Assembly: GCA_037141755.1 (NCBI GenBank)
Contig: JBAXBX010000002.1
Coordinates: 28,915 to 92,914 of the forward strand
From: Candidatus Saccharimonadota bacterium
Lineage (GTDB): Bacteria; Patescibacteriota; Saccharimonadia; Saccharimonadales; Saccharimonadaceae
Direction of reading: 5' to 3'
Length of the DNA: 64,000 bases
Below are positions 6,570 to 50,094 of this stretch, piece after piece. The position numbers were made by a program, and so were the translations under genes. Each line of letters starts with the position of its first letter. Position 1 is the first letter of the stretch. The notes under the pieces are model-generated. The model was not told where the DNA came from. It saw only the letters and a list, made by a program, of their open reading frames with translations, and did no database searches.

Positions 6570-7256
6570 ATGGACCCAAACACTTTACCGAATCAACCAG
6601 TGCCCGAAACACCACAACCAACGCCAGTGGTGACACCTGTGCAACAGTCAGTCGCTCAACCTCAACAGCCTTATATACCACCGCAGCCTGTTGGTGGTGT
6701 TCAGACACCACGACTAGTCGCAAAAGCAAAAAGTTTGCCGCTAAAAATCATAATCGGTGTAATAGTTATCATATTAATTGCTGGCGGAGTGAGCGCCTAC
6801 GTTATGTTTACTAGTCAAAAGGCTAGTGACACAACGACAAAAGTAGTCAAAACGTCAGACAATTCTGCTTCAAAGCCAACTACAACCAATTCTTTTAGCC
6901 CGTATGTAAATGCGAATAATGCCAAAGCAATAACTAACGCCCAGACAGTATCGAATGTGGCTGAAGTTTATTTTGCAGATTCTGGTTTTTACCCAGCTTC
7001 GGCAATTGATTTGATGAACGGTGACAGCACCTCGCAAGTGCCAAAAGGCATAACAATCATGCCTGGGGCTGAACCATCTCCGTTAAATGCCACCAATGGG
7101 ACCGACCACGTTACTTGGTCATGCTTGGTCACTTGTACCGAAACAAAAGGCGGCAAGATTACATACTGGGATTATACAACTAGCGCTGTCTCGACGGATG
7201 TAATTTATGCTGGTGATGCAACTGTACATTCAACATTTGTTAATCCAGCATCTTAG
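6570..7256 (+). CDS. hypothetical single-pass membrane protein with a Pro/Gln-rich N-terminal tail and a pilin-like ectodomain
   Basis: The N-terminal ~55 aa are P/Q/V-rich, followed by one TM helix. The ectodomain has AKAITNAQTVSNVAEVYFADSGFYP and a late C..C pair. Confidence 0.5.
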   Translation: MDPNTLPNQPVPETPQPTPVVTPVQQSVAQPQQPYIPPQPVGGVQTPRLVAKAKSLPLKIIIGVIVIILIAGGVSAYVMFTSQKASDTTTKVVKTSDNSASKPTTTNSFSPYVNANNAKAITNAQTVSNVAEVYFADSGFYPASAIDLMNGDSTSQVPKGITIMPGAEPSPLNATNGTDHVTWSCLVTCTETKGGKITYWDYTTSAVSTDVIYAGDATVHSTFVNPAS

Positions 7257-7981: not shown

Positions 7982-8611
7982 TTATTTATTCGCAAGTTGG
8001 TCTTTTATTTCATGCAATGTGTCGCGCATCTCTTCGTAATCTGAGACAAAATCAAGATACGATTGTCTAGAAGTAAATAACTCTAAAATTCTAGCTGAAG
8101 TAAGCCAGTTTGGTTCTTTGCCATGTACATAGAAACTTAGGCTTGAGTATTTATACTTTTCCCATAATCTGGGATTCAGGTAAATGTAGCGACTAATATG
8201 TTGCAAATATGATTCTTGATCTATCCTGACAGCCTTGTAACGACTTTCAAACACTGATCCAGTTCGTTTATACTTTAAGTTAAAATAACGACTATAGCTT
8301 GTCATTACGCAGCGCATAAGCTTTTCTAGATAGGGTGTATCGATTTGGTATATCAGCAGATGGAAATGATTAGTCATCAGGCAATATGCCAAAACTTCAA
8401 TCTGTCCAAGGAAGTTAGGGTATATCTCGTTTGTTTTGCTGATAGCAGGCTCCTCGGATAGATATCGTTCGAATAACTTAAGGAAGTACTTATAGTCAGC
8501 ACTTTCTATAAATAGTTTTTGCCTATTAATACCTCTGGCATAAACATGATAATAAGAATTAGGTACTTGATTCTTGATTATATTCCTAGATGGCATATGT
8601 TCATTATACAT
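7982..8611 (-). CDS. HUH/Y1 transposase (IS200-like / REP-associated tyrosine transposase-like)
   Basis: HUH motif in TNHFHLLIY, a catalytic-Tyr region SRYIYLNP, and the YHVYARG start typical of the PF01797-type fold. Confidence 0.8.
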   Translation of the reverse strand: MYNEHMPSRNIIKNQVPNSYYHVYARGINRQKLFIESADYKYFLKLFERYLSEEPAISKTNEIYPNFLGQIEVLAYCLMTNHFHLLIYQIDTPYLEKLMRCVMTSYSRYFNLKYKRTGSVFESRYKAVRIDQESYLQHISRYIYLNPRLWEKYKYSSLSFYVHGKEPNWLTSARILELFTSRQSYLDFVSDYEEMRDTLHEIKDQLANK

Positions 8612-8943: not shown

Positions 8944-9618
8944 ATGCAAGAAATCAATTTATATCATCTATTAAAATTCTATATCAGTAAATGGAAGCTT
9001 GTTTTAGCATTAACAATCGCTGGTTTGGCTGTTGGCCTTTGTTATAACGTATTTATTCAAGTGCCAATGTATAAAAGTAGCGCCACGCTGATTTTAATCA
9101 ATCCAGTTGATAAAACTGCCGCTACTGACGTCACACTTATCAATAACTATATCGAGTTATTTAAATCTCGTCGCGTGCTAGAACCAGTTGTTGCTGGTCA
9201 CAAACTTAACATGACATATGACGACTTAGTAAGCTCAACGAACGTGGTGAATACTAAAAGCACGGCCGTTATTGACGTATCGATTACCTCTAAAGATTCG
9301 TTAACCAGCCAATCATTAGTTGATAGTGCGGTTGCGTCATTCAAATCCCAGTCTAAATTGTTGTATTCTGACGACAACATCCAGGTAGTTGATAATGCCA
9401 GCCTTGAAACCAAGCCATACAATGTCAATCAAGTAATGCAGTTGGCCTTGTCAACAGCTGTTGGCTTCATTATATCTGTAATTGCATTATTCTTTGCCTA
9501 CGACTATAAACAAAACAAAAAAACCGTAACTAAGAAAGCTCAGCCTGCGTCAACTAAAAAAGTGGCTAAGGTTAGCCTTAAAAAGGCTGCATCAAAAAAA
9601 GTTGCTAAAAAGAAATAA
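8944..9618 (+). CDS. Wzz/YveK-type polysaccharide chain-length determinant protein
   Basis: N-terminal Wzz-like segment with a TM helix (KWKLVLALTIAGLAVG...YKSSATLIL), a second TM helix near the C-terminus, and a Lys-rich tail. Confidence 0.75.
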   Translation: MQEINLYHLLKFYISKWKLVLALTIAGLAVGLCYNVFIQVPMYKSSATLILINPVDKTAATDVTLINNYIELFKSRRVLEPVVAGHKLNMTYDDLVSSTNVVNTKSTAVIDVSITSKDSLTSQSLVDSAVASFKSQSKLLYSDDNIQVVDNASLETKPYNVNQVMQLALSTAVGFIISVIALFFAYDYKQNKKTVTKKAQPASTKKVAKVSLKKAASKKVAKKK

Positions 9619-9640
9619 ATTAAGCAAGGAGTACTGGTGT

Positions 9641-10372
9641 ATGTATCAAAAATTTATCAAACGCCCGCTAGATACTGCATTTGCACTTGTTATCTTTTTG
9701 GTGACATTACCAGTCGGTATTGTCATTGCTGTGATTATTAAACTAGAGAGTAAAGGTCCAGTATTTTTCAGGCAACAGCGTATTGGTATGAACATCCGAA
9801 CGTTTACTATATATAAATTTCGTACAATGCGGACTGATGCACCAAAATTACCACCTAATAAATTCAAAGATGTTAACAAATATATCACCAAATCAGGCGC
9901 AATTTTGCGCAAAACGTCACTGGATGAATTGCCTCAACTTTTTAATGTTCTAAATGGTGACATGTCAATTGTTGGTCCACGACCTGGTGCCGCCCAAAAC
10001 GAAGACGAATTAATTGTCGAACGTCAAAAATACGGTGTATTCGATGTACGTCCAGGTATTACTGGCTGGGCACAAGTCAATGGACGTGACGAACTGGCGG
10101 CCAGTGTACCGCACAAGGTAGCCTATGACGCTGAATATGTAGAAAATTTAAGCCTTATTATGGATTTAAAGTGTCTATACAAAACTATTCTGACCGTATT
10201 AAAGAGTGACGGCTATAACGAAGGTATCGTTAGCGACGCAATTAAACAGCCACGAATTGCAGTTAATCAGCAGCCTATGTTTTATGCTGAACTTCCTTCG
10301 CAAGCAGGTAAAAATAGTAAACGTTCAGTAGTGCGCCACCAGAATATTACTAAGTCAGAAAAGAATAACTAG
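9641..10372 (+). CDS. initiating sugar-phosphate transferase (bacterial sugar transferase family)
   Basis: DELPQLFNVLNGDMSIVGPRP and GITGWAQVNGR motifs. I prefer the ATG at 9641 (AAGGAG RBS at 9626-9631) over the track's TTG at 9602. Confidence 0.85.
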   Translation: MYQKFIKRPLDTAFALVIFLVTLPVGIVIAVIIKLESKGPVFFRQQRIGMNIRTFTIYKFRTMRTDAPKLPPNKFKDVNKYITKSGAILRKTSLDELPQLFNVLNGDMSIVGPRPGAAQNEDELIVERQKYGVFDVRPGITGWAQVNGRDELAASVPHKVAYDAEYVENLSLIMDLKCLYKTILTVLKSDGYNEGIVSDAIKQPRIAVNQQPMFYAELPSQAGKNSKRSVVRHQNITKSEKNN

Positions 10373-10380
10373 GTCAAATC

Positions 10381-11508
10381 GTGAAAAAAGTATTATTCAC
10401 AGCCACCGTTGATTCGCACATACTGGCATTTCATACGCCTTTTTTGAAGTACTTCAAGGAGAATGGCTATGAAGTTCACGTTGCGACAAACGGCACTGAA
10501 AATATACCTTATTGTGACAAAAAGCACGTTATTTCTTTCGAGCGTAGTCCATTTAAATTAAATAACCTTAGGGCAATCAGACAATTAAAAAAAGTTGTTG
10601 ACGCGGAACATTACGATATTATTCATACGCACACGCCAATGGGGGGGGTGGTAACTCGATTGGCGGCAATTGCGGCGCGTAAAAAAGGCACGCGAGTTAT
10701 CTATACAGCGCACGGATTTCACTTTTTTAAGGGCGCACCACTGATTAATTGGCTGACATATTATCCTATCGAAAAGTTAATGTCCAAATATACAGACACA
10801 TTGATAACTATCAATAACGAAGATTACGAACGCGCTAAAAGCAAATTCAAAACTGACATTCAATACGTCCCTGGTGTTGGTATCGACCCAAAAAAGTTCG
10901 ACTTCAAAATGTCAAAATCGCAAAAGTCAGAATTAAGACAATCTCTTGGGTTAGCTGATGATGATTTCGTCATGATTTATCCGGCCGAATTAAACAAGAA
11001 TAAAAATCAATTATGGTTAATTAAATCTATTGCAGATTTAATAAAAAATAACTCAAAAATACACTTATTACTACCAGGTGTCGACAGCCTAAACGGTAAA
11101 TGCCAAAAACTAGCAATAAAACTAGGTATTGATAAAAATATTCACTTTTTGGGATACAGAAAAGACATCCCTCAATTGCTAAAAATAGCAGATTTATCGG
11201 TCTCATCATCGTTGCGAGAGGGGTTGCCTGTGAATATCATGGAGGCGGCTTATCTAGGCCTGCCTATTATTGCGACTAATTGTCGAGGTAATCGAGACAT
11301 AGTTGCAGATACTAATAACGGAAAACTATATGACATAAATGATTCAGATAAAATTATTAATGAAGTTTTTGTTGTTTATAGTAGCATACGGCACCCCTAC
11401 GGTAATATTGCCGTAACGCCTCAAAAAAACAACATATATTCTCTATATATGATTATCTATAGGATGTCGGAAGTATATGATCATAGTGTGCGTGAGGCTA
11501 ATATATAA
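10381..11508 (+). CDS. glycosyltransferase family 4 (GT-B fold)
   Basis: REGLPVNIMEAAYLGLPIIAT (E-x7-E region). The N-terminal domain resembles Glyco_trans_4. Confidence 0.85.
   Translation: MKKVLFTATVDSHILAFHTPFLKYFKENGYEVHVATNGTENIPYCDKKHVISFERSPFKLNNLRAIRQLKKVVDAEHYDIIHTHTPMGGVVTRLAAIAARKKGTRVIYTAHGFHFFKGAPLINWLTYYPIEKLMSKYTDTLITINNEDYERAKSKFKTDIQYVPGVGIDPKKFDFKMSKSQKSELRQSLGLADDDFVMIYPAELNKNKNQLWLIKSIADLIKNNSKIHLLLPGVDSLNGKCQKLAIKLGIDKNIHFLGYRKDIPQLLKIADLSVSSSLREGLPVNIMEAAYLGLPIIATNCRGNRDIVADTNNGKLYDINDSDKIINEVFVVYSSIRHPYGNIAVTPQKNNIYSLYMIIYRMSEVYDHSVREANI
10641..10648 (+). repeat. G8 homopolymer inside the GT4 coding sequence
   Basis: atg ggg ggg gtg encodes M-G-G-V. It is one of only two G/C runs of 8 or more that I saw in the window. 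Confidence 0.9.
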
Positions 11509-12962
11509 TGAAGTCAAAATGGATAATATTTTTCATAACTTACATCTTTATCTTTTTTTCTATATTTACTTTAAGTTTTATAAATTATGATATTTACAAC
11601 ATTAACAAAGTCTGTATATATTGGGGATTAATAATTGTTAGTCAGCTCATTTTATTTTTTATACTATATTATTCAAAACACAAGACGCTAAATAACCCCT
11701 TTATATATTTCGTAATTACTGCATTTGTGTGTTGGTTTGGCCAAATAATGGTCGTGCTTTTCAATCTAAACCATGATACAACACTTATAATCAATACTTT
11801 TAATTCTAGTGAGCTATACGCAACACTGCAATATAGTACAATCTGCTTCTTCACTCTGTGTATTGCTGGGCTTTTGTTCTCCGGAAAAAATAGCTACAGT
11901 AATTTTACGACGGGTATTAGTGACAAAATATTTAAAAAGAGTATGAATCTAGTAGGCATGTCTTTATCTTTTATTGGCATTTACGGCTATTTCTCGGAAA
12001 AATTTACAAGCATAGCATCGTCTTTTAATACTGGTTATTCTTCAATGTATCAGAATAACGCAAATGCCTTAGACGCTATATCAAATAGTACAGATAATGT
12101 TATTTCAAATTTTAGCATGTTTTTTATACCAGGAATCGTAATTCTATTTATTGCAAATAAGGACAATAAAACAATTAGAAGAATTATTGTTTCGGTGCTT
12201 CTTTCTTCTGTTTTAATGTCATTTATAGCAGGCGGACGAGCTGAAGCGCTGGCGATTATTATTGGGCTATTTTGGATATATTCTAGCGAGATCAAGAAGA
12301 TTGACTTAAAAGTGATTATTTGGTTGATAATCATAGCGATATTCATTCTAAAACTAATTACAGCCATAGCGCAATTTAGAATTATGCCAGACAGGAGTCT
12401 GAGTGTATTTATAGACATATTTTTTTCAAACAGTAATAGTTTTGGAAATTCACTTGGCAATATGATGGGGGAGTTTGGCTTTAATATTTTTTCTTTACAT
12501 GAGACTATGAATCTCATACCGGCGACACAAGACTATTCATTGGGCTACACATACTTTGCTTCAGTCATGGCTGTTATACCTAGTTTCTTATTTGGTGGAT
12601 ATTCATTTTCAAGCGCAGCAGGTCTACCAAGCTGGCTAATGAATAAATTACACATGGACTACGGCCCAGGCTATTCTATTGTTGCAGAATCATATTATAA
12701 TTTCGGCTGGATCGGTATTATATCAATGTTCATTATTGGTATCATTTTAGTAAAAATGTTGTCCAATGACAAAACTAACGATGATTATAAAAGTCTTCGT
12801 AATGGCCTTATAGCCATTATTATATATTCCAACCTATTTATTGCTAGGGGCACGTTTTTATTGATCTTTAGGAAATATTTTTACACAGTACTAATACCCA
12901 CTATGTTAATTATGTTTGCGTATGAAATGTATAGACGAAGAGGTCGAAATCTAAATGCGTAG
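11508..12962 (+). CDS. polytopic membrane protein, probable O-antigen/EPS polymerase (Wzy-like)
   Basis: About 12 predicted TM segments, very AT-rich, and located between glycosyltransferases and the flippase. Confidence 0.55.
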   Translation: MKSKWIIFFITYIFIFFSIFTLSFINYDIYNINKVCIYWGLIIVSQLILFFILYYSKHKTLNNPFIYFVITAFVCWFGQIMVVLFNLNHDTTLIINTFNSSELYATLQYSTICFFTLCIAGLLFSGKNSYSNFTTGISDKIFKKSMNLVGMSLSFIGIYGYFSEKFTSIASSFNTGYSSMYQNNANALDAISNSTDNVISNFSMFFIPGIVILFIANKDNKTIRRIIVSVLLSSVLMSFIAGGRAEALAIIIGLFWIYSSEIKKIDLKVIIWLIIIAIFILKLITAIAQFRIMPDRSLSVFIDIFFSNSNSFGNSLGNMMGEFGFNIFSLHETMNLIPATQDYSLGYTYFASVMAVIPSFLFGGYSFSSAAGLPSWLMNKLHMDYGPGYSIVAESYYNFGWIGIISMFIIGIILVKMLSNDKTNDDYKSLRNGLIAIIIYSNLFIARGTFLLIFRKYFYTVLIPTMLIMFAYEMYRRRGRNLNA

Positions 12963-14889
12963 TAGGAATCATGATATTTCGATTGTTATGTCTGAGTATA
13001 ATACAAACGAAACATATTTGCGTCAATCCATAATTAGTATATTAAACCAAACTTTTGTAGACTTTGAGCTCATAATCGTCGACGATTGCGGATCTAATGA
13101 TGTCGCAAAAATCGTTGCAGAATTTAATGACGACAGAATTATAATTGTTAAAAATTCAAATAATATGGGTCTATCCTACTCATTAAATAATGGCATTAAA
13201 CACGCTCGAGGCAAATACATCGTCAGAATGGATACCGACGATATTGCCATGCCTGCCAGAATCAAAGAAATTTACAATTTTATTATCTCTCATCCGGAAT
13301 ATGACGTTGTTGGATCTAGAGCTGTAGAGTTCTCAGATAATGAAACAGGCGGAATACTTGGCAAAAGTGGCGAAAAAACAAAAAAATCAATAATGCACGG
13401 TGACACAATGATACACCCTAGCGTTATAATGAAAAAAAGTGTTATAGAAGCAGTTGGTTATTACACACACTATAAAAGAGCTGAAGACTTAGCTCTATGG
13501 TGTGAGCTACTACTTCGTGGAAATAGACTATACATTATCGACAATGTACTTTTGCAGTATCGTGTAAATCTGAGCGATTACAGCAAAAGGAAGTTAAAAA
13601 CTCGGAAAGATGATATCAGGATTAGGCTCAACTATTATTATAAGATGAGGGCTAATCTATTTGACTATATGTATATATTAAAAGGCATTATCTCTGCAAT
13701 CTTGCCAGTAAGGGTCGTAAGAAAATATAGAAATATATTCGTATTGAAACAATACAAAAAACAGGCACGTAAGTCACCTAACGACGGTATTATTATTTTG
13801 CATATCGTTGGCAGCATGAATAGAGGCGGCGCTGAAACATTTTTGATGAATGTGCTGCGGAATATAAACAAAAATAAGTTTAAGTTTGTTTTCTTATGCT
13901 ACGGCGACACCAAATTCGATTACGAGAATGAGATTATCGATCTTGGCGGAAAGATTATAAGAACTGACGACGTAAAAGAAGTTGGTATATTAAAACATAT
14001 AAAAAATATTCAACAAATTATCCAAGACGAAAAAATTGACATTGTTCATACGCACACCTGTCGCAATTCTATGTTTTCGCTGATTGCAGCTAAACGATGT
14101 CGAGTTAATACACGAATTGCTCATTCACATAACACCAGGACAAGCCAAGGCGAAAATCTAATAAAGAAGATGTACTTTATTTTCGCAAAATACATTATCA
14201 ACAAATATTCGACTAAGTATCTTGCTTGTGGCGAGCAAGCTGGCAAAGCATTATTTTATCCAAAAAATACGTTTACCGTTATAGATAATGGCATCAATTT
14301 AGATGATTTTTATTATAATGACGGTGTTCGTCAGGACATAAGGAGAAAATTAAACATTTCGAATGATACTGTCGTGATTGGACATGTGGGTAGAATCGAT
14401 AAAAATAAAAATCAAAATTTTGTAATCGATACATTTTTCGAATATTTAAAATTACAGCCTAAATCTAAACTTATTTTAGTAGGCGATGGAATTTTAAGAA
14501 GTCAAATTGAAAACAAAGTACGCAAACTAGGAATACAAAAAAATGTATTGTTTTTAGGAAACCGATCTGACGTAAACAAACTATATAATGCATTTGATAT
14601 CTTTATATTCCCATCGATACGCGAAGGTCTGCCAGTGACATTAGTTGAAGCGCAGACAAATGGATTAACTTGTCTAATTAGCGATTCAATTGACGAATCA
14701 GTAGAATTGACTGATTGTATTACCTTTTTTTCACAAAATAATAATTCGCAACAGTGGGCAAACCAGTTAAACAAATTAGACATTAAAAGAAAAGACACGA
14801 AAAAAATATTAAGTCACAGCCAATATAATATGTCCAAAAATATACGAAAAATTGAGTCGCTATATGCTAGCGCGCTGGAAGGTAATTAA
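12955..14889 (+). CDS. fused two-domain glycosyltransferase (N-terminal GT2 plus C-terminal GT4)
   Basis: GT2 motifs are ISIVMSEYNT, VDDCGSND and RMDTDD. The GT4 part has REGLPVTLVEAQTNGL. Confidence 0.8.
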   Translation: MRSRNHDISIVMSEYNTNETYLRQSIISILNQTFVDFELIIVDDCGSNDVAKIVAEFNDDRIIIVKNSNNMGLSYSLNNGIKHARGKYIVRMDTDDIAMPARIKEIYNFIISHPEYDVVGSRAVEFSDNETGGILGKSGEKTKKSIMHGDTMIHPSVIMKKSVIEAVGYYTHYKRAEDLALWCELLLRGNRLYIIDNVLLQYRVNLSDYSKRKLKTRKDDIRIRLNYYYKMRANLFDYMYILKGIISAILPVRVVRKYRNIFVLKQYKKQARKSPNDGIIILHIVGSMNRGGAETFLMNVLRNINKNKFKFVFLCYGDTKFDYENEIIDLGGKIIRTDDVKEVGILKHIKNIQQIIQDEKIDIVHTHTCRNSMFSLIAAKRCRVNTRIAHSHNTRTSQGENLIKKMYFIFAKYIINKYSTKYLACGEQAGKALFYPKNTFTVIDNGINLDDFYYNDGVRQDIRRKLNISNDTVVIGHVGRIDKNKNQNFVIDTFFEYLKLQPKSKLILVGDGILRSQIENKVRKLGIQKNVLFLGNRSDVNKLYNAFDIFIFPSIREGLPVTLVEAQTNGLTCLISDSIDESVELTDCITFFSQNNNSQQWANQLNKLDIKRKDTKKILSHSQYNMSKNIRKIESLYASALEGN

Positions 14890-14890
14890 T

Positions 14891-16345
14891 ATGAGCAATA
14901 AAATAGAATTACTGAAAAATACATTTATTCTTGCCACGGGCAAGTTGTCAGCCCAACTAATATCATTTCTACTTCTTCCTATTTATACAGCATTTTTATC
15001 GCCTAGTGAATACGGCGTATTAGATTTAACAATCATATATATGGCACTACTAGTCCCAATCATTACCATACAACTTGAAATGGCATCATTCCGATTCTTG
15101 ATTGAAAACAGAAAAAATAAAGTCCACCAGCAACAAATTATATCAAACGTCATACAAACAGTAACGTTGATATTGGTAATATTTATAGTAATATACGCTA
15201 TTTTCTATAACTATATCAACATTAGATACGCAAATTTAATCCTACTAAACGTCTGTTTAACTGCATATTCCAATCTATTTTTACAATTTGCACGTGGTTT
15301 TGGTGACAATAAAAGGTTTTCTATTGCCAGCGTTATTATAGGGTTCACCACACTTACTACTACGATTGGTTTAGCAATCTATGGTAATCTCGACGTTCAA
15401 GGTATTTTATTGTCACTGGCGTTCGCTAACTTTTTGTGTATTATATACCTGATTTTTTCACTAAAACTTTACAAATATATTAATATATCCAGCTCAAATA
15501 AAGACACTAAACAAAAGTTATTAAAATATTCGTATCCTTTAGTCCCAAGCGCTATATCTTGGTGGATAGTCAGTGTATCCGACAGAACAATAATTTCAAT
15601 TTTTCTTGGCATAGCAGCGAACGGTATTTATGCAATCGCAAATAAATACGCAACCATATTTAACGCTATATTTGCTATATTTAATATGTCATGGATAGAG
15701 TCTGCATCAATTCACATAGACGATCACAACAGAGATAACTTTTTTTCCGAAACAGCCAATGCAAATATTAAAGTGTTCGGATCACTCGGCTTGTTATTAA
15801 TAGCGTACATACCATTAGTGTTTACAGACCTAGTAAATAGACAATACAATGAAGCCTATTTATATATCCCCATCCTGACTGTCGCCGCATTCTTTAACGC
15901 CTTAGCTGGCTTCTACAGTGCAATTTACATAGCAAAAAAACTAAGCAAGCAGGTTGCTAATATATCTATTGTTGCTGCAATTATTAATATTATTATAAAC
16001 TTAATTTTTATTCAGTATATTGGCATATACGCTGCAGCATTATCAACAGTAATTGCATATCTGGCCGTATCAATCCATCGCCATTACGACATAAAAAAAT
16101 ATGTAAGCATTACTTATGAAAAAGGCATATTTATCAATATGGCAATATTATACGCTTTCGCGATTATCCTGTATTACTACAATAACGTCATCGGAAATGT
16201 GTTAAATGCTGTCATTATTACTATCATTGCAATAGTTTTAAACAAATCGGTCATAAAAGTCATCAAAGACAAAGTACTTAGCGTTAGCAACCGTAAACGT
16301 TCAAAACTAATAATCGAACAAGATCTATATGAAAATTCAATATAA
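14891..16345 (+). CDS. wzx: polysaccharide flippase (Wzx, MOP superfamily)
   Basis: About 12-14 TM helices and an N-terminal LLKNTFILATGKLSAQLISFLLLPIYT typical of polysaccharide biosynthesis (PST) proteins. The ATG at 14891 avoids overlap with the upstream gene. Confidence 0.75.
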   Translation: MSNKIELLKNTFILATGKLSAQLISFLLLPIYTAFLSPSEYGVLDLTIIYMALLVPIITIQLEMASFRFLIENRKNKVHQQQIISNVIQTVTLILVIFIVIYAIFYNYINIRYANLILLNVCLTAYSNLFLQFARGFGDNKRFSIASVIIGFTTLTTTIGLAIYGNLDVQGILLSLAFANFLCIIYLIFSLKLYKYINISSSNKDTKQKLLKYSYPLVPSAISWWIVSVSDRTIISIFLGIAANGIYAIANKYATIFNAIFAIFNMSWIESASIHIDDHNRDNFFSETANANIKVFGSLGLLLIAYIPLVFTDLVNRQYNEAYLYIPILTVAAFFNALAGFYSAIYIAKKLSKQVANISIVAAIINIIINLIFIQYIGIYAAALSTVIAYLAVSIHRHYDIKKYVSITYEKGIFINMAILYAFAIILYYYNNVIGNVLNAVIITIIAIVLNKSVIKVIKDKVLSVSNRKRSKLIIEQDLYENSI

Positions 16346-16781
16346 AAACCTGCTATTAATCACCTGGATGATACTAATCTTCCTATTTTCAAACGAAGTT
16401 GCAACCACATCATCCACGCGCAGTGCCGTTATTGTTAACGATATTATCAATACTTTGCATGTTAGTTTGTCCGAAGATATACTGACTTTTTTAACCCGCA
16501 AAGCAGCACATATTTTTCTTTATTTGGTGCTGGGTGTATTAATGTATAACGTCGTAAAGGAATATGGCTTCACAACCAAAAAGGCGATGTTGTTGAGTAT
16601 TTTATTTTCATTATCATATGCCGGTTTCGATGAAACTCATCAATTATTTATATCGGGTCGCAGCGGACAGGTGAGTGATGTGATGATTGATACAACCGCT
16701 AGTGCTGTTGGAGTTGCGGTATATTATTATTTACATAAATTACGCCATAATCTTATAGCTGTTAAGTTGGGTGATGAGTAA
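16329..16781 (+). CDS. VanZ family membrane protein
   Basis: Four TM helices and the DETHQLFISGRSGQVSDVMIDT motif. Confidence 0.7.
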   Translation: MKIQYKNLLLITWMILIFLFSNEVATTSSTRSAVIVNDIINTLHVSLSEDILTFLTRKAAHIFLYLVLGVLMYNVVKEYGFTTKKAMLLSILFSLSYAGFDETHQLFISGRSGQVSDVMIDTTASAVGVAVYYYLHKLRHNLIAVKLGDE

Positions 16782-18189
16782 TATGCTGAATGCTAAACCA
16801 TTAAAAATTATCAGTAAAGTAATCGCCATTATCGCAGTCGTCAGTTATATTGTAGCGGTTTATTTGGTTGTTGATGCTAGGCTGATTCCAGTTAAATATT
16901 TAGCAATCATCATATTAATTACAAGTTTGCTAATTATATGGCTGCTGTTTTTAACCTTTAAAAATAAGCTGTCGTCCAGGGGCGTAATTGCAGCGACTTT
17001 GACATCAACACTAATTATTTTGGCCAATGTCTATGTTATATCGACCAGTATTAGTACAAATATTTTTTTAAACAGCATTCAAGAAGCCAAATACACTCAG
17101 CAGGAATATAGTATTATCGCCAAAACCGATCAGGTTATTAACTTGGACTCTGGTGTCAATCGAATAGGGATTATCAACACTGACGTTAATAATGATTTAG
17201 TCAGGTCCGAGGTCAATAAACAGACCAAAGTTAGCTATGTAAAGTATGATAATATCAGTGGCATAACAGCCGCCTTGGATGATAAATCAGTCAATATGGC
17301 GGTCATCAAAAGCTCATATTTGCAATTGCTAAGTGAAAACTATGATTCTTTTTATCAGACCATCAAAGTAATTGGCAGACTGAATATCAAAGTCAAAAAA
17401 GACACAATTGTCACAAAATCAGATGTATCAAAACCATTTGTTTTGTATATCAGCGGCATTGATACTTATGGTGACGTATCGACGGTGTCACGTAGTGACG
17501 TTAATATTATGGTCGGTGTTAACCCGCAAACGCATAAAATTTTGTTGGTAAATACGCCTAGGGATTATTATGTTCAGCTGCATGGCACGACTGGCGTTCG
17601 CGACAAACTGACTCATGCTGGTATTTACGGTATCGATATGTCGGTTCAGACTATGGCGGATTTGTACTCTGTGCCAATTAATTATTATCTGCGTATTAAT
17701 TTTTCGTCACTAACTAATATCGTTGATGTACTGGGCGACGTTGACGTCATTTCGGAATATAATTTTTTGGCTGATGATAATCAGTATGTAGTTGGCGTTA
17801 ATCATTTAAATGGCAGTCAGGCGTTGAGCTTTGCGCGCGAGCGACATTCATTTGAGGCTGGTGATCGAACCAGGGGACAGAATCAACAACGTGTCATCGA
17901 AGCGATTATTGCCAAGATGAATAATCCTAATACGTTGGTTAAATACCAGCAAATCCTGGCATCACTGCAACGGACAATTCAAACCGACATGGATTCGGAC
18001 AGTATAACTACATTAATCAAAAACCAACTGGATAATATGATTAAATGGAGCGTCGAATCAATCAGTGTGACTGGCGTGGACAGCCATAATGTAACCTACA
18101 GCATGGGTAATTTGCCGCTTTACGTGATGGAACCAGACGCAGATTCATTAAACGCTGCTAAAACCAAGATTCAACAATACATAAAATAA
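16771..18189 (+). CDS. LytR-CpsA-Psr (LCP) family glycopolymer transferase
   Basis: N-terminal TM helices. The LCP core reads YISGIDTYGD...RSDVNIMVGVNPQT...NTPRD...GSQALSFARERH. Confidence 0.8.
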   Translation: MMSNMLNAKPLKIISKVIAIIAVVSYIVAVYLVVDARLIPVKYLAIIILITSLLIIWLLFLTFKNKLSSRGVIAATLTSTLIILANVYVISTSISTNIFLNSIQEAKYTQQEYSIIAKTDQVINLDSGVNRIGIINTDVNNDLVRSEVNKQTKVSYVKYDNISGITAALDDKSVNMAVIKSSYLQLLSENYDSFYQTIKVIGRLNIKVKKDTIVTKSDVSKPFVLYISGIDTYGDVSTVSRSDVNIMVGVNPQTHKILLVNTPRDYYVQLHGTTGVRDKLTHAGIYGIDMSVQTMADLYSVPINYYLRINFSSLTNIVDVLGDVDVISEYNFLADDNQYVVGVNHLNGSQALSFARERHSFEAGDRTRGQNQQRVIEAIIAKMNNPNTLVKYQQILASLQRTIQTDMDSDSITTLIKNQLDNMIKWSVESISVTGVDSHNVTYSMGNLPLYVMEPDADSLNAAKTKIQQYIK

Positions 18190-27623: not shown

Positions 27624-27652
27624 TTGCATTTCTCTACGGGGGGGGCTACAAT
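27624..27652 (+). promoter_or_regulatory. putative promoter of the DGR target gene with a G8 tract in the spacer
   Basis: TTGCAT (27624-27629), then a 17-nt spacer containing G8 (27638-27645), then TACAAT (27647-27652). Confidence 0.5.
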
Positions 27653-27724
27653 AATAAGCATAAGTAATAATTAAGTTTTTTAAATGTATACACATAAGGG
27701 GTTATCCAAAATGAATAAAATATT

Positions 27725-28819
27725 ATGAATAAAATATTCTTAACTTCGAAAAATGAACCTGTCACTCTACCACCTACTACCTACAAACTACCATCTACCA
27801 AACCTGGTTTCACCCATGCTTCGCCAAGGCTACGCAGGATAAAGGTAGCTTCGCCAGCCTTTACAATCGTCGAACTCCTAGTAGTCATCGTAGTCATCGG
27901 TATCCTTGCCGCTATCACAATAGTTAGCTACACTGGTATCTCTCAAAAAGCTATTGTCGCCACCCTCCAATCTGATCTAGGCAATGCTTCAAAAACAATT
28001 AAGCTATATCAAGTCGAACAAGGACAATTTCCAACTTCCTTTGATGCCAACAATTGCCCAGTCCCAGCCAATGCCAGATACTGCCTGAAAGCCAGTTCAG
28101 GTAATACTTTTGACAGGACTGCCTATGCTGCATCTGTCAACAACTCGACTAATCCTCAAACCTTTACATTGGATGTTACTAATACCAATACGACTAAATA
28201 CCGCATTACTAATAATTCAGCACCAATAGCTGTATCTGCCACACCTGAAACACTAGCCGACACAGACCCAGCTAACTGGCTAGCCATAGGAACTCAGGTC
28301 TGGGGCAAATACAACCTTAACGTCGGTACTATGGTTACTGGCGTAACTGCTCAAACTAACAACTTAATCCTAGAAAAATACTGTTCCGCCAACACTGAAT
28401 CAAACTGCACAACCTACGGTGGTCTATACCAATGGGATGAAGCCATGCAATACGTCACAACTAACGGCGCTCAAGGCATCTGTCCAACTGGATCACATAT
28501 TCCATCTGACAACGATTGGAAGGTGTTAGAGGTTCAACTCGGTATGACTCAGGTGCAAGCTGATGCGATTGCTTGGCGCGGTACTAATCAAGGCACTCAA
28601 TTGAAAAATGGCGGAACGTCGGGGTTGAATATGCCGCTTGCCGGCCTCCGCTACACCGACGGGTCCTTCGACACTCTGTCGTCGTTCGCTTACTTGTGGT
28701 CTAGTTCGGAGTCGAGCACTAGTGCTTGGGAACGTACCTTGTACTCGGGTTACGCGACGGTGTACCGTGACACGCTTGGCAAGGCGGGCGGTTTTTCGGT
28801 ACGCTGCCTAGGAAATTGA
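27725..28819 (+). CDS. DGR variable protein: type IV pilin-like N-terminus fused to a FISUMP / C-type-lectin-fold domain
   Basis: Class III signal-like A|FTIVELLVVIVVIGILAAITIVSY. FISUMP-like YGGLYQWDEAM, CPTGSHIPSDNDW and GFSVRCLGN. The last ~62 codons are the VR. Confidence 0.9.
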   Translation: MNKIFLTSKNEPVTLPPTTYKLPSTKPGFTHASPRLRRIKVASPAFTIVELLVVIVVIGILAAITIVSYTGISQKAIVATLQSDLGNASKTIKLYQVEQGQFPTSFDANNCPVPANARYCLKASSGNTFDRTAYAASVNNSTNPQTFTLDVTNTNTTKYRITNNSAPIAVSATPETLADTDPANWLAIGTQVWGKYNLNVGTMVTGVTAQTNNLILEKYCSANTESNCTTYGGLYQWDEAMQYVTTNGAQGICPTGSHIPSDNDWKVLEVQLGMTQVQADAIAWRGTNQGTQLKNGGTSGLNMPLAGLRYTDGSFDTLSSFAYLWSSSESSTSAWERTLYSGYATVYRDTLGKAGGFSVRCLGN

Positions 28820-28821
28820 TT
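28634..28821 (+). repeat. DGR variable repeat (VR)
   Basis: 188-nt ungapped match to 29424-29611. It has 21 mismatches, 20 of them opposite TR adenines. Confidence 0.92.
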
Positions 28822-28935
28822 GTTCGATTTGACTATTTGACCCTTTGACTATTTTTGTACAAAATAAATTAGATTTGGCTGTTAAATATAAAATTTCGTG
28901 ATGGTATGTTTATTAAAATAAGGTGGATAAAAAAT

Positions 28936-29334
28936 ATGACGACATATTACAATTTGCCTGTTTATAAACAAAGTTATGATTTGCTTTTAGAGATATTTAA
29001 ATTGACGAAGGAATTTAATCGGGAATATAAATATACGATTGGTGAAGAACTAAAAAAAGAGACTACTGCAATGATAATCAATATTTATCGAGCTAATAGC
29101 AGCAATAATAAAGTCGATTATATCGTTAGTGCTAGGGAAAATATTGAGGTTATTCGATTATTGATTAGGCTGCTAAAAGATTTAAAACAAATTCAAGTGG
29201 CTAGAATTGCCAGATTAAATTTAGCGATCGAGGAACTGTCGAAACAGTTAACCGGTTGGGGAAATTATTCAAAAATAAATAGTGCTAAAGGGCCAGAACC
29301 ATTCGTTGCCAAGTTGGCGAGTGGGCGCGCCTAA
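28936..29334 (+). CDS. avd: Avd-like accessory protein (four-helix-bundle family)
   Basis: 132 aa. LPVYKQSYDLLLEIFKLTKEF..EYKYTIGEELKKE is typical of the four-helix-bundle / 23S IVS protein family. AGGTGGA RBS. It is positioned between VR and TR. Confidence 0.8.
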   Translation: MTTYYNLPVYKQSYDLLLEIFKLTKEFNREYKYTIGEELKKETTAMIINIYRANSSNNKVDYIVSARENIEVIRLLIRLLKDLKQIQVARIARLNLAIEELSKQLTGWGNYSKINSAKGPEPFVAKLASGRA

Positions 29335-29423: not shown

Positions 29424-29611
29424 CCGCTTGCCGGCAACCGCAACACCGACGGGTCCTTCAACAATCTGTCGTCGAACGCTAACTTGTGGTCTAGTTCGGA
29501 GTCGAGCACTAGTGCTTGGGAACGTAACTTGAACTCGGGTAACGCGACGGTGAACCGTAACACGAATGACAAGGCGAACGGCTTTTCGGTACGATGCCTA
29601 GAAAATTGATT
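29424..29611 (+). repeat. DGR template repeat (TR), non-coding
   Basis: The VR homolog carries AAC/AAT wherever the VR codons vary. It ends 14 nt before the RT ATG. The 65-aa ORF called here is an artefact. Confidence 0.92.
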
Positions 29612-29625
29612 AAAAAGTAAAATAT

Positions 29626-30846
29626 ATGACAGAAAAACATATACAAATTACTCACGAATATAGCCTGATTGAGGATATCTTTCAGGCTTATTATGATGCT
29701 CGTAAAAATAAACGAAATTCTAATAGTTCTTTGGGATTTGAACTTGAATATGAGAAAAACTTGGTACAACTCTTCCACGAAATTAATGAACGAAGTTACA
29801 AGCCCAGGCCTTATTCTGCATTTATTATCGAAAAACCAGTCAAAAGAGAAGTTTTTGCAAGTGAGTTTAGGGATAGAGTAGTCCATCATCTGATATTTAA
29901 TTATATTAATCCAATATTCGACCCACTTTTTATAAATGATAGTTACAGTTGTCGCGTAAATAAAGGTACTTCGTATGGTATAAAAAGAGCTGACTATTTT
30001 ATAAAGTCATGTAGCCAAAACTATAAAAAAGACGCCTACATAATGAAATTAGATGTAGAAGGTTATTTTATGTCGATTGATAAAACGATACTTTTTGAAA
30101 TTATTAAAACGCAAATTATTAAACGTCAAGACAAGTTGATTTGTGAGTTAGATTTAATATTATTTTTGGTTGAAAAGGTTATTTTTTGCGACCCAACGAA
30201 AGATTGCATAATTAAAAGTGGGCGAGAGTCGTGGCAAGGGTTGCCAAAATCAAAAAGTCTGTTCTTTTCTGGTAAAAATAAAGGTCTACCGATAGGTAAT
30301 TTGACATCTCAGCTTTTCGCAAATATTTATCTGAATGAAATTGATCAATTCATAAAACGGGAGCTAAAATTTAAATATTACGGACGATATGTGGATGATA
30401 TGATTTTTGTCGATAATGATAAAGAGCGATTAATATGGGCTATTAAAGAAATTAAAAAATATTTAGCGTCCAATTTATCATTAAAGCTTCATCCAAAGAA
30501 AATATATTTGCAGAACTCCAATAAGGGAGTTAATTTTTTAGGCGCATTTATAAAACCATATAGGATTTTAGTCGGGAAAAGAATAAAAAGTAATTTATAT
30601 CGTAAAGTGTATGAAGGACTATATATTTTGAACTATTCGAATGCTAAAATCAGTGATTTTGATAAAAATTTTGAATTTAAACAATTAATTAATTCATATT
30701 TTGGTATATTAAAACAGGCAAATTCTTATACATTCAGAAAAGGAGTCGTAGAATTAATTGTCGATATATCTAGAGGTGATTTTGTGCCAAATGATGATTT
30801 TAGTGTGATAAGTTTATGTAAAAAATATACAGTTTTGAAAGTGTGA
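29626..30846 (+). CDS. DGR-type reverse transcriptase
   Basis: LPIGNLTSQLFANIYL (DGR-type motif 4), catalytic YVDD, and an RVVHHL fingers region. 406 aa. Confidence 0.9.
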   Translation: MTEKHIQITHEYSLIEDIFQAYYDARKNKRNSNSSLGFELEYEKNLVQLFHEINERSYKPRPYSAFIIEKPVKREVFASEFRDRVVHHLIFNYINPIFDPLFINDSYSCRVNKGTSYGIKRADYFIKSCSQNYKKDAYIMKLDVEGYFMSIDKTILFEIIKTQIIKRQDKLICELDLILFLVEKVIFCDPTKDCIIKSGRESWQGLPKSKSLFFSGKNKGLPIGNLTSQLFANIYLNEIDQFIKRELKFKYYGRYVDDMIFVDNDKERLIWAIKEIKKYLASNLSLKLHPKKIYLQNSNKGVNFLGAFIKPYRILVGKRIKSNLYRKVYEGLYILNYSNAKISDFDKNFEFKQLINSYFGILKQANSYTFRKGVVELIVDISRGDFVPNDDFSVISLCKKYTVLKV

Positions 30847-47508: not shown

Positions 47509-48795
47509 ATGAAACATACCGTCGAAGAGATACGTTTAAAAAACGGGGCCCGAGGACTATTAATTGACGTACCTGATGCGACGACGATGAGTATGCAGTT
47601 TCAGTTTCGGGCTGGTAATCGTTATGTTAAGTCCAAAGATATCGAACAAGTAGCGCACATAATGGAACATATGGCTTTTGGGGCTAACGCTAGATTTAAA
47701 AGTGACCATGAATTTGAGTTTGAATTTACCAAAAATGGAGCTTACCGGAATGCTTACACCAGTGATTTATCAATGGTTTACGAAGCTGACTGTGCCGATT
47801 TTGAATGGTATCGAATTTTAGACTTACAAAAACTAGCAATTTGTCAGCCAAAATTTAATGAAGAAGAATTACACGCCGAAAAGGGAAATGTCAGAAGCGA
47901 ACTAACAAATTATCTAAACGACCATTATCGTATTTTGTGGCCACGTGTTCAGCAATTGATTGGTGAGGATGTCTTAACTTTCCGTCAGTCGTTACAGACG
48001 ATCAGCGCTGTAACACTAGCTGATGTACGCGAACATCACCGTCGAACTCATACGACCAACAACTTGCGTTTTGTAATTGCCGGTAAGTTATTAGGTCGTA
48101 AGGCTGAAATTAGGCGTCAGCTAGAAGATATGTCGTTGCCTGAAGGCGTACGTTTAGAAGTCCCTCGTGATGAATTATCCAAAGCTGGCCCAAGTGTGAT
48201 TCGTCGTAAGGATGCAACTAATATGACGTTTGGCTTGTTTATGGCAATTCCAAGAGAATTGAATGACGAAGAATTAGATGCTATGCATTATTTGAACCAT
48301 ATTTTAACTGGGACAATGCACTCACGCATCTTTGGCGCCGCTCGGCAAAAAGGCCTGGCTTATAATATTAGTTCGTATGTTGGTACCGGAATGTATGACA
48401 GTGGTTGGGATATTACAGGACAAGTCAACCACGAAGCTGCTGGTGAATTATTTGATATTATTGCCCGCGAAATTAAAAATGTTTTGGATGGAAAAATTGC
48501 TGATGAAGAAGTTAACGCTGCTAAGTCATTTGCACTAGGCAGATACCAAATGGGCGCTCAGACGGTGTCGCAAATTAGTGGTTTTTATACCGGACGTTAT
48601 TTTGATGATGGTTTTATTAAAGATTATGACAAAGTGCCTGAAATGATTAAAAACGTGACAGTGCAGCGTATGATAGATACGGCCAGGTATTTTATCAAAG
48701 AAGATATTTGGGTTCTAGCTGCCGTCAGTAGTGGCGACAAACAAGAATTAGTCGATTTAAATGATAAAGTAGCTGTACTTTTTGAGAAGGAATAA
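47509..48795 (+). CDS. M16 (pitrilysin) family peptidase, subunit 1
   Basis: Inverted zinc motif HIMEH (HxxEH). It is paired with a paralog downstream. Confidence 0.8.
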   Translation: MKHTVEEIRLKNGARGLLIDVPDATTMSMQFQFRAGNRYVKSKDIEQVAHIMEHMAFGANARFKSDHEFEFEFTKNGAYRNAYTSDLSMVYEADCADFEWYRILDLQKLAICQPKFNEEELHAEKGNVRSELTNYLNDHYRILWPRVQQLIGEDVLTFRQSLQTISAVTLADVREHHRRTHTTNNLRFVIAGKLLGRKAEIRRQLEDMSLPEGVRLEVPRDELSKAGPSVIRRKDATNMTFGLFMAIPRELNDEELDAMHYLNHILTGTMHSRIFGAARQKGLAYNISSYVGTGMYDSGWDITGQVNHEAAGELFDIIAREIKNVLDGKIADEEVNAAKSFALGRYQMGAQTVSQISGFYTGRYFDDGFIKDYDKVPEMIKNVTVQRMIDTARYFIKEDIWVLAAVSSGDKQELVDLNDKVAVLFEKE

Positions 48796-48798
48796 TTA

Positions 48799-50094
48799 AT
48801 GCCACTTAAACACACTGTTGAAGAAATAGTGATAGGTAACGGCATAAAGGGGTTGATAATAGACGTCCCTGATTCGACAGTTGTTTCATATGATATCAAC
48901 TTTCGAGCGGGCTATGATTATGCCGATCCGTCTATTCAGCAGGTAGCGCACTTGTTGGAACATTTGTCATTTGGAGCGAATGATAATTATTCAACAGCTG
49001 AAGAATTTAGCCAAGAATTTTCGAAGAATGGTGCAACTATTAGCGCAACGACATCTAATAGGAGTATGAGCTATTCGTCATTGTCGGCCTTGATGGAGCT
49101 AGGTCGAATTATGGACTTGTTTAAACTTGCCATTACTCATCCACAGTATAAGCAAAAACTGTTTGATGCTGAAAGAGGTAATGTACGAGAAGAGTTGGTG
49201 GCGCAGGCGAATAATCATAGCCGAGTTTTGTTTCAACAAATCCAAAGGGCTATGGGTGATACCTGCTTAATAGATTCCGAGAAGATTGAAACTATTAATA
49301 AAGTTGAGTTATCAGACATTCAAAATTTTTACACAAAAACTCATACTTTGAATAATATGCGATTTGTTATCGCAGGTAATATATCTGAATCTAAAGAAAT
49401 GATTATTGATAAGCTAAACAATTGGGATCTAACAGTTGGTGAAAGGTTTCCAGTAAAGCAGGTATCCGTAAAATCATCACCAATTGTACATTTATATCGA
49501 CCAGATCTTTCGAATTTAACATTTGAGATTACTATATTATTACCTCGACAATTATCGACAACTGAATTGGTTGCTATGGGTGGCCTAAACCACATATTAA
49601 CTGGAACGTTTCATTCTAGAATTTTCGGGAAAGCTCGTAGTCAGGGAATTTGTTATCATGTTAGTTCGAATTACGATACTGATGTTTCAAACGTATCATC
49701 ATGGGAGATATATGGCCGAGTTGGACTCGAAAATGCTGAATCACTATTCAAATTAATTATTGAACAGTTACAAAAGGTTATCGATAATGACATAACAAAC
49801 GAAGAATTGGATTCGGCAAAGCAATATGCTTTGGGTAGATATCAAATGAGAGGTCAAACAGTCGGCTCGGTTGTTGGTTGGTATGCGGAGGATTATTTTA
49901 ATCGTGAAGTTATTGAGATGATGGACCTGTCGCCAGAATCGATTAAATCAACAACGCTGCAGGATATGGTTGTATTGGCTAAAGAATTTATTGAAAAAGG
50001 CGAGTGGACTTTGGGTGGAATTGGCAATATATCGCAAGAACAATTACAATCATATTATGACTTGTTATTAAATCTTTTAAAAAAGGTGAAATAA
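48799..50094 (+). CDS. M16 family peptidase, subunit 2
   Basis: HLLEH motif and the same architecture as the upstream paralog. Confidence 0.8.
   Translation: MPLKHTVEEIVIGNGIKGLIIDVPDSTVVSYDINFRAGYDYADPSIQQVAHLLEHLSFGANDNYSTAEEFSQEFSKNGATISATTSNRSMSYSSLSALMELGRIMDLFKLAITHPQYKQKLFDAERGNVREELVAQANNHSRVLFQQIQRAMGDTCLIDSEKIETINKVELSDIQNFYTKTHTLNNMRFVIAGNISESKEMIIDKLNNWDLTVGERFPVKQVSVKSSPIVHLYRPDLSNLTFEITILLPRQLSTTELVAMGGLNHILTGTFHSRIFGKARSQGICYHVSSNYDTDVSNVSSWEIYGRVGLENAESLFKLIIEQLQKVIDNDITNEELDSAKQYALGRYQMRGQTVGSVVGWYAEDYFNREVIEMMDLSPESIKSTTLQDMVVLAKEFIEKGEWTLGGIGNISQEQLQSYYDLLLNLLKKVK

Follow-up and report, generated by a model that had tools for sequence, protein, structure and literature searches.

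Retroelement-Driven Variation of a FISUMP Head on a Type IV Pilin-Like Protein of Saccharibacteria

Introduction

What does a cell display when a diversity-generating retroelement (DGR) targets the end of a protein that begins like a type IV pilin? The question is raised by a 64,000-nucleotide stretch of DNA (the window) from a Candidatus Saccharimonadota bacterium (GenBank assembly GCA_037141755.1, contig JBAXBX010000002.1, positions 28,915 to 92,914 of the forward strand). The DGR target gene in this window (27725..28819, plus strand) starts with ATG and encodes a 364-residue protein made up of a leader, a pilin module, a linker, and a FISUMP (Fib_succ_major) head. With reasonable confidence, we read this protein as a DGR-diversified minor pilin that serves host recognition as an adhesin, probably at the pilus tip.

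How episymbionts of the candidate phyla radiation (CPR; Patescibacteria) recognize their hosts is the central step of their biology that is still unsolved, and recent work has shown that type IV pili (T4P) with lectin-like minor pilins drive the binding of cultured Saccharibacteria to their hosts. A family of pilin-borne FISUMP domains rewritten by DGRs would provide a molecular handle on the adaptation of uncultured relatives to host surfaces that change.

The Diversity-Generating Retroelement

The DGR is encoded on the plus strand in the order target, avd, template, and reverse transcriptase. The variable repeat (VR; 28634..28821) covers the last 61 codons of the target gene (residues 304-364), its stop codon, and two further nucleotides; no second VR was found within the window. 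The accessory protein Avd, a bAvd four-helix bundle, is encoded at 28906..29334 (the gene caller places its start at 28936) and matches PF22296 (E=5.5e-15; 56.2 bits, cutoff 40) and NF033474 (E=1.8e-14), while its score of 53.9 with the NCBIfam model DivGenRetAVD is under the equivalog cutoff of 80. The template repeat (TR; 29424..29611) contains 45 adenines in 180 nucleotides, including 15 AAY codons (Y is C or T). The reverse transcriptase (RT; 29626..30846) is a 406-residue protein that matches PF00078 (RVT_1; E=8.6e-17) and carries the motifs IGNLTSQ and YVDD.

An ungapped comparison of the two repeats finds 20 of the 45 TR adenines substituted, against one of the 135 other bases, and this sole non-adenine difference lies near the 3′ end (28792). 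AAY codons can give 15 amino acids and no stop codon. The guanine-plus-cytosine (GC) content is 59% in the VR, 54% in the TR, 44% in the rest of the target gene, and 29% in the RT gene, and the GC-rich composition of the two repeats fits repeated homing.

The same sites vary throughout the family. Across the 120 family proteins that served as the homolog profile and alignment set, positions corresponding to TR AAY codons have 3.0-3.5 bits of entropy and a Y/N/D/G/S/F spectrum, with most of their neighbors near or below 1 bit. This hypervariability indicates that DGR mutagenesis has acted on the same positions throughout the family. Loci L086 and L007 sample a close orthologous locus twice, with an RT 79% identical to that of the window. 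They are about 98% identical outside the VR and differ at 24 positions within it, 22 of which are TR adenines, and this suggests that the DGR lineage is still diversifying.

The FISUMP Head

The head (28283..28810, plus strand) spans residues 187-362. The initial annotation had recognized the FISUMP layout in the C-terminal ~180 residues from its motifs, and profile searches confirm it: PF09603 matches over positions 2-186 of its 187-position profile (E=1.8e-31; 110.3 bits, cutoff 33.9), as does TIGR02145 over the same head (E=4.8e-24; 86 bits, cutoff 41.65). We take IPR011871 to be the InterPro entry for this FISUMP/TIGR02145 domain. An AlphaFold2 model of the target, built from the 120-sequence alignment, predicts the head confidently (pLDDT >90), and the head modeled alone reaches a pTM of 0.87. 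The VR falls in the last five β strands of the modeled head.

The FISUMP assignment was coupled to a second claim, that the head adopts a C-type-lectin fold, and for this part the structural comparisons provide much less. No solved structure matching the head by sequence was found with the 120-homolog profile. Foldseek retrieves phage FISUMP models from BFVD (E=9e-11), and against the PDB neither the full model nor the head alone gives a significant match (best E=0.07, TM-score 0.28-0.45). The sub-significant PDB list consists mostly of C-type-lectin-like domains, from snake venoms and natural killer (NK) cells, together with the C-terminal PF07603/DUF1566 domain of Legionella Lcl, which has a Foldseek probability of 0.80 at a sub-significant E-value; Mtd and TvpA are absent among the 50 Foldseek matches listed. 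The ortholog at L007 has a weak match to PF07603 (E=0.007). The VRs of DUF1566 and Fib_succ_major domains have been grouped as the CLec2 class (PMC5758913), and it is mainly because of this published grouping that the head is likely to be C-type-lectin-like.

The Pilin Module and Its Class III Signal

The pilin module (27860..28219, plus strand; residues ~46-165) comprises Phe46, Glu50, an α1 helix at residues 48-99, the Cys111/Cys120 pair, and two short strands. The N-terminal pilin helix foreseen from the sequence is present in the AlphaFold2 model (mean pLDDT 88.3) as one unbroken α1 helix of 52 residues with pLDDT 90-97. The predicted β region is small, consisting of strands at 148-152 and 158-162, both short, and a single short helix, and a lower-confidence linker (~163-184) separates the module from the head. 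The 120-homolog profile matches solved pilins over up to ~120 residues, including Geobacter PilA-N (2e-16), GspG (4e-10), Thermus PilA4 (5e-10), Streptococcus sanguinis PilE1 (2e-8), Thermus PilA5, and Neisseria PilE. The Foldseek match of the full model to N. gonorrhoeae PilE is weak (probability 0.60, E=0.5). Cys111 and Cys120 of the pilin module and Cys220, Cys228, Cys253, and Cys361 of the head are invariant, a pattern consistent with three extracellular disulfides.

The N-terminal signal has been described as a class III (prepilin) motif with Glu at +5, and the motif is indeed there: VASPA45↓F46-T-I-V-E50-LLVVIVVIGILAAITIVSY, with Phe at +1 and Glu at +5 (the arrow marks the predicted cleavage site). 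Written as A45↓F46-T-I-V-E50-LLVVIVVIGILAAITIV, it shows that Glu50 is followed by the hydrophobic stretch LLVVIVVIGILAAITIV. It is the only class III-type motif in a six-frame translation of the window. The TIGR02532 model (IV_pilin_GFxxxE) scores 20.6 bits, above its cutoff of 16.3, and Pfam N_methyl scores 18.9 bits, slightly below its cutoff of 21.2. The GspG model matches residues 46-105 (E=1.4e-10), and the ComGC match is weak. The Ala at -1 that the initial annotation pointed out is nothing exceptional within the family; among the 119 members over which leaders and cleavage sites were counted, the residue at -1 is Ala in 28 and Gly in 91.

The leader (27725..27859, plus strand) is 45 residues long, one more than first counted, with a putative prepilin-peptidase cut after Ala45. 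Its residues 1-44 are predicted to be disordered (pLDDT <50). It was rightly called unusually long and devoid of an alternative start, as codons 1-50 of the target open reading frame (ORF) contain no further in-frame ATG, GTG, or TTG. The closest relative with available DNA, Saccharibacteria CG2_30_41_52 (L010), has a pilin module 83% identical to that of the target and a leader of 21 residues ending in KPG↓FTIVELL. The target leader is longer because of two in-frame insertions relative to L010 on the plus strand. The first is a 21-nucleotide expansion of a CTACCAYCTAC-like repeat (27767-27787), and the second is a 51-nucleotide insertion, HASPRLRRIKVASPAFT (27815..27865), which the DNA alignment places directly after GFT. 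The longer insertion interrupts the ancestral KPG↓FT-IVELL, whose Gly site is lost, and recreates A↓FTIVELL, a plausible cleavage site given the frequency of Ala at -1 among the relatives.

Related inserts containing RLRR occur at the same spot in family members P0003, P0056, P0065, and P0099, and in three of these four they are accompanied by a duplicated or shortened (F or L)TIVELL-like motif. The 18-nucleotide core of the target insert (27821-27838) occurs 126 times in at least 120 unrelated metagenome contigs, mostly in the frame context P[AST]SPRLRR followed by [ATV]. Given this spread over unrelated contigs, the insert contains one copy of a short, GC-rich repeat motif that is widespread. 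The idea that it is a pilin-specific element was rejected, as none of the 126 occurrences adjoins a pilin motif.

The start-codon region is spanned by an exact 14-nucleotide tandem duplication, two copies of ATGAATAAAATATT (27711..27738, plus strand), that is unchanged in the independent assembly L001. The first copy starts an upstream ORF (uORF) of five codons (MNKIL and stop) whose TGA overlaps the main ATG as ATGA, and a Shine-Dalgarno-like AAGGGG (27697-27702) lies 8 nucleotides 5′ of the uORF ATG.

Such features could mark the target as a decaying or silent relic, with a signal broken by insertions, a start displaced by the duplication, and a frozen VR. The 51- and 21-nucleotide leader insertions speak for decay, yet the insertion is in frame and the junction that it recreates is native to the 28 relatives with Ala at -1. 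The uORF that stands between the Shine-Dalgarno-like sequence and the main ATG can be read as damage, whereas an ATGA stop/start overlap is the standard arrangement for translational coupling. Assemblies with the target protein all have the same VR, and some paralogs elsewhere have AT-drifted VRs and no DGR nearby; at the window locus, however, the ORF, Avd, and RT are intact with catalytic motifs kept, and the VR agrees with the TR at 134 of 135 non-adenine positions and has 59% GC in a genome of 39% GC. The last two properties indicate recent homing. We regard decay as improbable.

Family Size, Distribution, and Modularity

The initial annotation proposed a search for homologs that combine a pilin N-terminus with FISUMP as a check, and this combination is not rare. 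More than 4,500 homologs of the target were recovered (4,522 at E≤1e-5 among 8,000 candidates scored), most of the top 120 contain both PF09603 and PF07963, and JGI already has a name for such proteins. After clustering of the library at 50% identity, 1,614 representatives remain at E≤1e-30. At least 14 of the best 150 representatives are full-length pilin-FISUMP proteins of 317-343 residues, and the remainder are mostly giant multi-FISUMP proteins. The giants (P0241-P0260) reach up to 7,786 residues with 5-10 tandem domains and are the best-scoring representatives of the head.

Among GTDB species representatives, cassettes of the order target-Avd-TR-RT whose target has a FISUMP domain are found in Saccharibacteria-like genomes, other Patescibacteria, Moraniibacteriota, Nomurabacteria, Saprospirales, and Bacteroidales. 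The cassette target is fused to a pilin in L006-L008, L010, L015 (two copies), and L022, a metagenome-assembled genome (MAG) labeled Gammaproteobacteria. Many paralogs are isolated genes in housekeeping surroundings and lack a nearby RT. Two family members on one 578-kb contig, P0070 and P0105, were considered as trans targets of a single TR and rejected: the two VR regions disagree at 77 of 186 positions, many of them non-adenine, and one has drifted to AT-rich, so they are not recent products of one TR.

The pilin module also carries other heads. L010 has a second, divergent FISUMP domain, and L007/P0002 has an extra immunoglobulin (Ig)-like spacer. At L009 (6929-8644), the module is fused to a seven-bladed lactonase-type β-propeller, and L002 (10001-12952) contains a run of three pilin genes with the same module and FISUMP, Laminin_G_3, and ComP-like C-termini. 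Head swapping on one pilin module matches the carrier-plus-effector logic of modular pilins (PMC8179133). The target itself has the organization of a modular pilin, with a pilin motif and PF09603 in one polypeptide and a linker between them.

This modularity bears on the possibility that the target builds a dedicated filament as its major subunit, with a hypervariable head on every subunit. The family is very abundant and the α1 segment is extremely conserved (0.47 bits over residues 45-75 across homologs), as a major pilin might be; a head of ~180 residues plus a linker is nonetheless sterically unlike the solved T4P major pilins (110-210 residues), and relatives that add Ig-like spacers or swap heads behave in a way typical of tip adhesins. 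The major pilins of Nanosynbacter lyticus TM7x are small (PMC11623550). A major-subunit role is very improbable.

Pilus Machinery and Placement at the Cell Surface

The window has a GC content of 39% and contains the housekeeping genes ftsA/ftsZ, ileS, parAB, prfA, rpsB, tsf, frr, uppS, and secA, a gene set typical of Saccharibacteria/Patescibacteria genomes. A protein identical to the target is already in NCBI as a MAG protein of Candidatus Saccharibacteria.

Several points weigh against an adhesive minor pilin. The target gene is solitary among the housekeeping genes, and pilB, pilC, pilD, and pilM-O were found neither in the window, where all ORFs of at least 120 residues were read, nor within 10 kb beyond either window end on the 319,980-bp source contig (ena:ERZ4200879:NODE_3_length_319980). 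The cut after Ala45 is predicted, and it lies in a leader with a 17-residue insertion. The lectin-like fold is only weakly suggested by the models, for which no PDB structure gives a statistically significant match. The window VR is identical across the independent assemblies that carry the target protein, so we infer activity of this DGR copy from the orthologous locus only. Finally, we infer rather than observe incorporation into a pilus, location at the tip, and the nature of the ligand. The earlier proposal of a hypervariable head displayed on, or as, a pilus subunit thus stands as an architecture, with the pilus itself still a prediction.

PilB-type ATPases share contigs with family members in three other genomes (38,709, 99,238, and 578,517 bp), and one lies 8 kb from family member P0105. 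T4P, including PilD, are reported to be nearly universal in Saccharibacteria (PMC11623550). It is unlikely that the source genome lacks T4P machinery.

The chief alternative is a receptor, either anchored in the membrane or borne by a short pseudopilus, in which the class III signal would serve only for export and anchoring through α1N and the DGR-varied head would be displayed at the cell surface, never in an extended pilus. Archaeal binding proteins with class III signals and the pseudopilins of type II secretion systems (T2SS) are precedents. The best-scoring N-terminal family of the target is the T2SS pseudopilin GspG, yet its long helix at residues 48-99 is the canonical filament-assembly interface. 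The gene lies outside any pilus operon and many paralogs are scattered singly among housekeeping genes, as a stand-alone receptor might be, whereas at L002 the family member is one of three pilin genes in a row. Known DGR targets with FISUMP/DUF1566 domains, Legionella LdtA among them, are lipoproteins anchored at the surface and not pilus parts (PMC5758913), but Saccharibacteria are reported to produce two types of T4P whose minor pilins are modular and lectin-like (PMC11623550). On balance, a receptor outside any extended pilus is unlikely, although it deserves to be taken seriously.

As an adhesive minor pilin, the target would be a type IV pilin of the bimodular ("modular") kind in an episymbiont of the Saccharibacteria type. 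Prepilin peptidase would cleave after Ala45, and the α1 helix would dock the protein into a T4P. Because the head is bulky, a low-abundance subunit at the tip is the most probable placement, as has been proposed for other modular pilins. The head would bind a variable ligand on the bacterial host cell, probably a glycan or a surface structure. Mutagenic retrohoming would rewrite the 15 AAY codons and ~12 partly variable codons, and a cell lineage could therefore try out binding specificities anew on an unchanging pilin scaffold. The simple-sequence repeats described below may add on/off switching of expression.

Simple-Sequence Repeats and Possible Phase Variation

Simple-sequence repeat (SSR) tracts of the kind found at this locus and its relatives are a classical signature of phase-variable surface genes. 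A G8 tract (27638..27645, plus strand) upstream of the target gene is a candidate tract for slipped-strand phase variation. By manual reading, it lies within a 17-nucleotide spacer between TTGCAT (27624-27629) and TACAAT (27647-27652); a consensus promoter scan does not list this site, whose -35 hexamer matches at only three of six positions. No variation in G8 length was seen among assemblies at the window locus. Runs of seven or more G or C occur only twice in the window, and the corresponding tracts in two relatives, G9 in L010 (9974-9982) and G12 in L015 (9923-9934), are the only such runs in their loci. Both lie directly 5′ of a -10-like box before a pilin-FISUMP gene, and the arrangement in L015 is TTGCCG, 17 nucleotides, and TATAAT with a TGG extension. 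The recurrence of poly-G before -10-like boxes in three genomes suggests phase variation through the promoter spacer.

A second repeat lies within the leader-coding region of relatives. The (CT)n tract of L007 (5397-5422) is 4 nucleotides longer than that of the near-identical L086 (~111-150), and the L007 gene is frameshifted while L086 is in frame, so that the two form one ON/OFF pair. In L006, where the tract lies on the minus strand (~1525-1534), a pilin gene is out of frame by a shift that one CT unit would correct. Leaders with (LS)n of three or more are present in 13 of the 120 family proteins. These tracts suggest that phase variation is layered on DGR variation in the family. To our knowledge, SSR phase variation in CPR pilins has not been described.

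In the fullest version of this proposal, a two-tier system would operate on a T4P tip adhesin of environmental Saccharibacteria, with the DGR rewriting the FISUMP binding face and SSRs, poly-G in the promoter spacer and (CT)n in the leader, toggling individual pilin paralogs. We put it forward tentatively, as a possibility that we would not count on. If true, an obligate episymbiont would have a combinatorial, antibody-like means of finding and changing its bacterial hosts.

The other G8 tract of the window (10641-10648) lies in frame in a GT4 glycosyltransferase ORF (10381-11508). This gene belongs to a polysaccharide cluster (~8944-18189) of Wzz, sugar transferase, GT4, Wzy-like, GT2, flippase, and LCP genes, and the cluster is absent from the L207 strain, whose FtsZ is identical. 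In this strain-variable island, the GT4 gene is a candidate for phase variation of surface glycans, and a gene for a Y1-type (IS200-like) transposase (7982-8611, minus strand; PF01797 in L208) borders the island. Also missing from the L207 strain is a 228-residue protein (6570-7256, plus strand) with a Pro/Gln-rich N-terminus, one transmembrane helix, and a C-terminal domain, which has no Pfam match. Elsewhere in the window, two adjacent paralogs of ~430 residues downstream of secA (47509-50094) resemble M16-type peptidases by eye.

Comparison with Known Systems

The closest architectural counterparts of the target are the modular pilins of S. sanguinis, PilB with a vWA module and PilC with a ConA-like lectin module (PMC8179133; PMC9934059). 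The target likewise has a small N-terminal pilin module, a short linker, and an effector domain unrelated to the pilus, whereas the heads of the characterized modular pilins are invariant. The combination of the two domains is already on record: in Dataset S1 of Raynaud et al. 2021 (PMC8179133), IPR012902-IPR011871 ranks fifth by frequency among modular-pilin architectures, with 40 proteins. In that study, the IPR011871 module is without a clear function and no link to DGRs is drawn, in contrast to the DGR-varied head of the target.

Within the same phylum, Nanosynbacter lyticus TM7x makes the lectin-like minor pilins PilX1 and PilX2, and PilX2 is needed for efficient host binding (PMC11623550). 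Like the target, they have large C-terminal accessory domains, and they are proposed to be positioned at the tip and to bind host glycans. The pilin at L009 combines a module of the target's type with a seven-bladed β-propeller, as found in PilX2. The heads of PilX1 and PilX2 are a β-jelly roll and a propeller, unlike FISUMP, and no DGR is reported for them (PMC11623550). They are also reported to lack a predicted PilD signal, whereas the target has one.

As a DGR target, the protein falls into a described group. Category 'd' targets of the CLec2 VR class include DUF1566 and DUF823 as well as Fib_succ_major domains, with Legionella LdtA as an example (Wu et al. 2017, PMC5758913), and FISUMP has been found in 43 DGR targets (PMC11661182). 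The target shares the domain family of its head, the C-terminal VR, and the order target-avd-TR-RT with this group. LdtA is an outer-membrane lipoprotein, whereas here a prepilin module acts as the carrier, in a CPR bacterium of monoderm-like type.

Functionally, the target is analogous to the tip pilins of the Bacteroides Type V pilus, which are DGR-diversified (bioRxiv 10.1101/2024.11.15.621889). There, too, the adhesive subunit at the tip has a C-Lec head that a DGR rewrites, but Type V pili assemble by strand exchange from lipoprotein precursors, belong to another phylum, and have a pilin fold that is not homologous. Paul et al. 2017 (Nat Microbiol 2:17045), as represented in PMC6642488, mention 'putative pilin structures' among the DUF1566-type, transmembrane-linked DGR targets of CPR bacteria. 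None of the literature searched, which did not include Paul et al. 2017 itself, joins a diversity-generating retroelement with a type IV pilin.

The initial annotation could cite no characterized example of this combination, and the novelty that this implied was overstated, since pilin-FISUMP fusions, pilins with lectin modules, and DGR-targeted FISUMP/DUF1566 heads are all catalogued. The target locus is no new kind of system; each of its ingredients has been recorded before. What makes it worth following up is the explicit link between a DGR and a type IV pilin, the size of the family, and the additional layer of SSRs.

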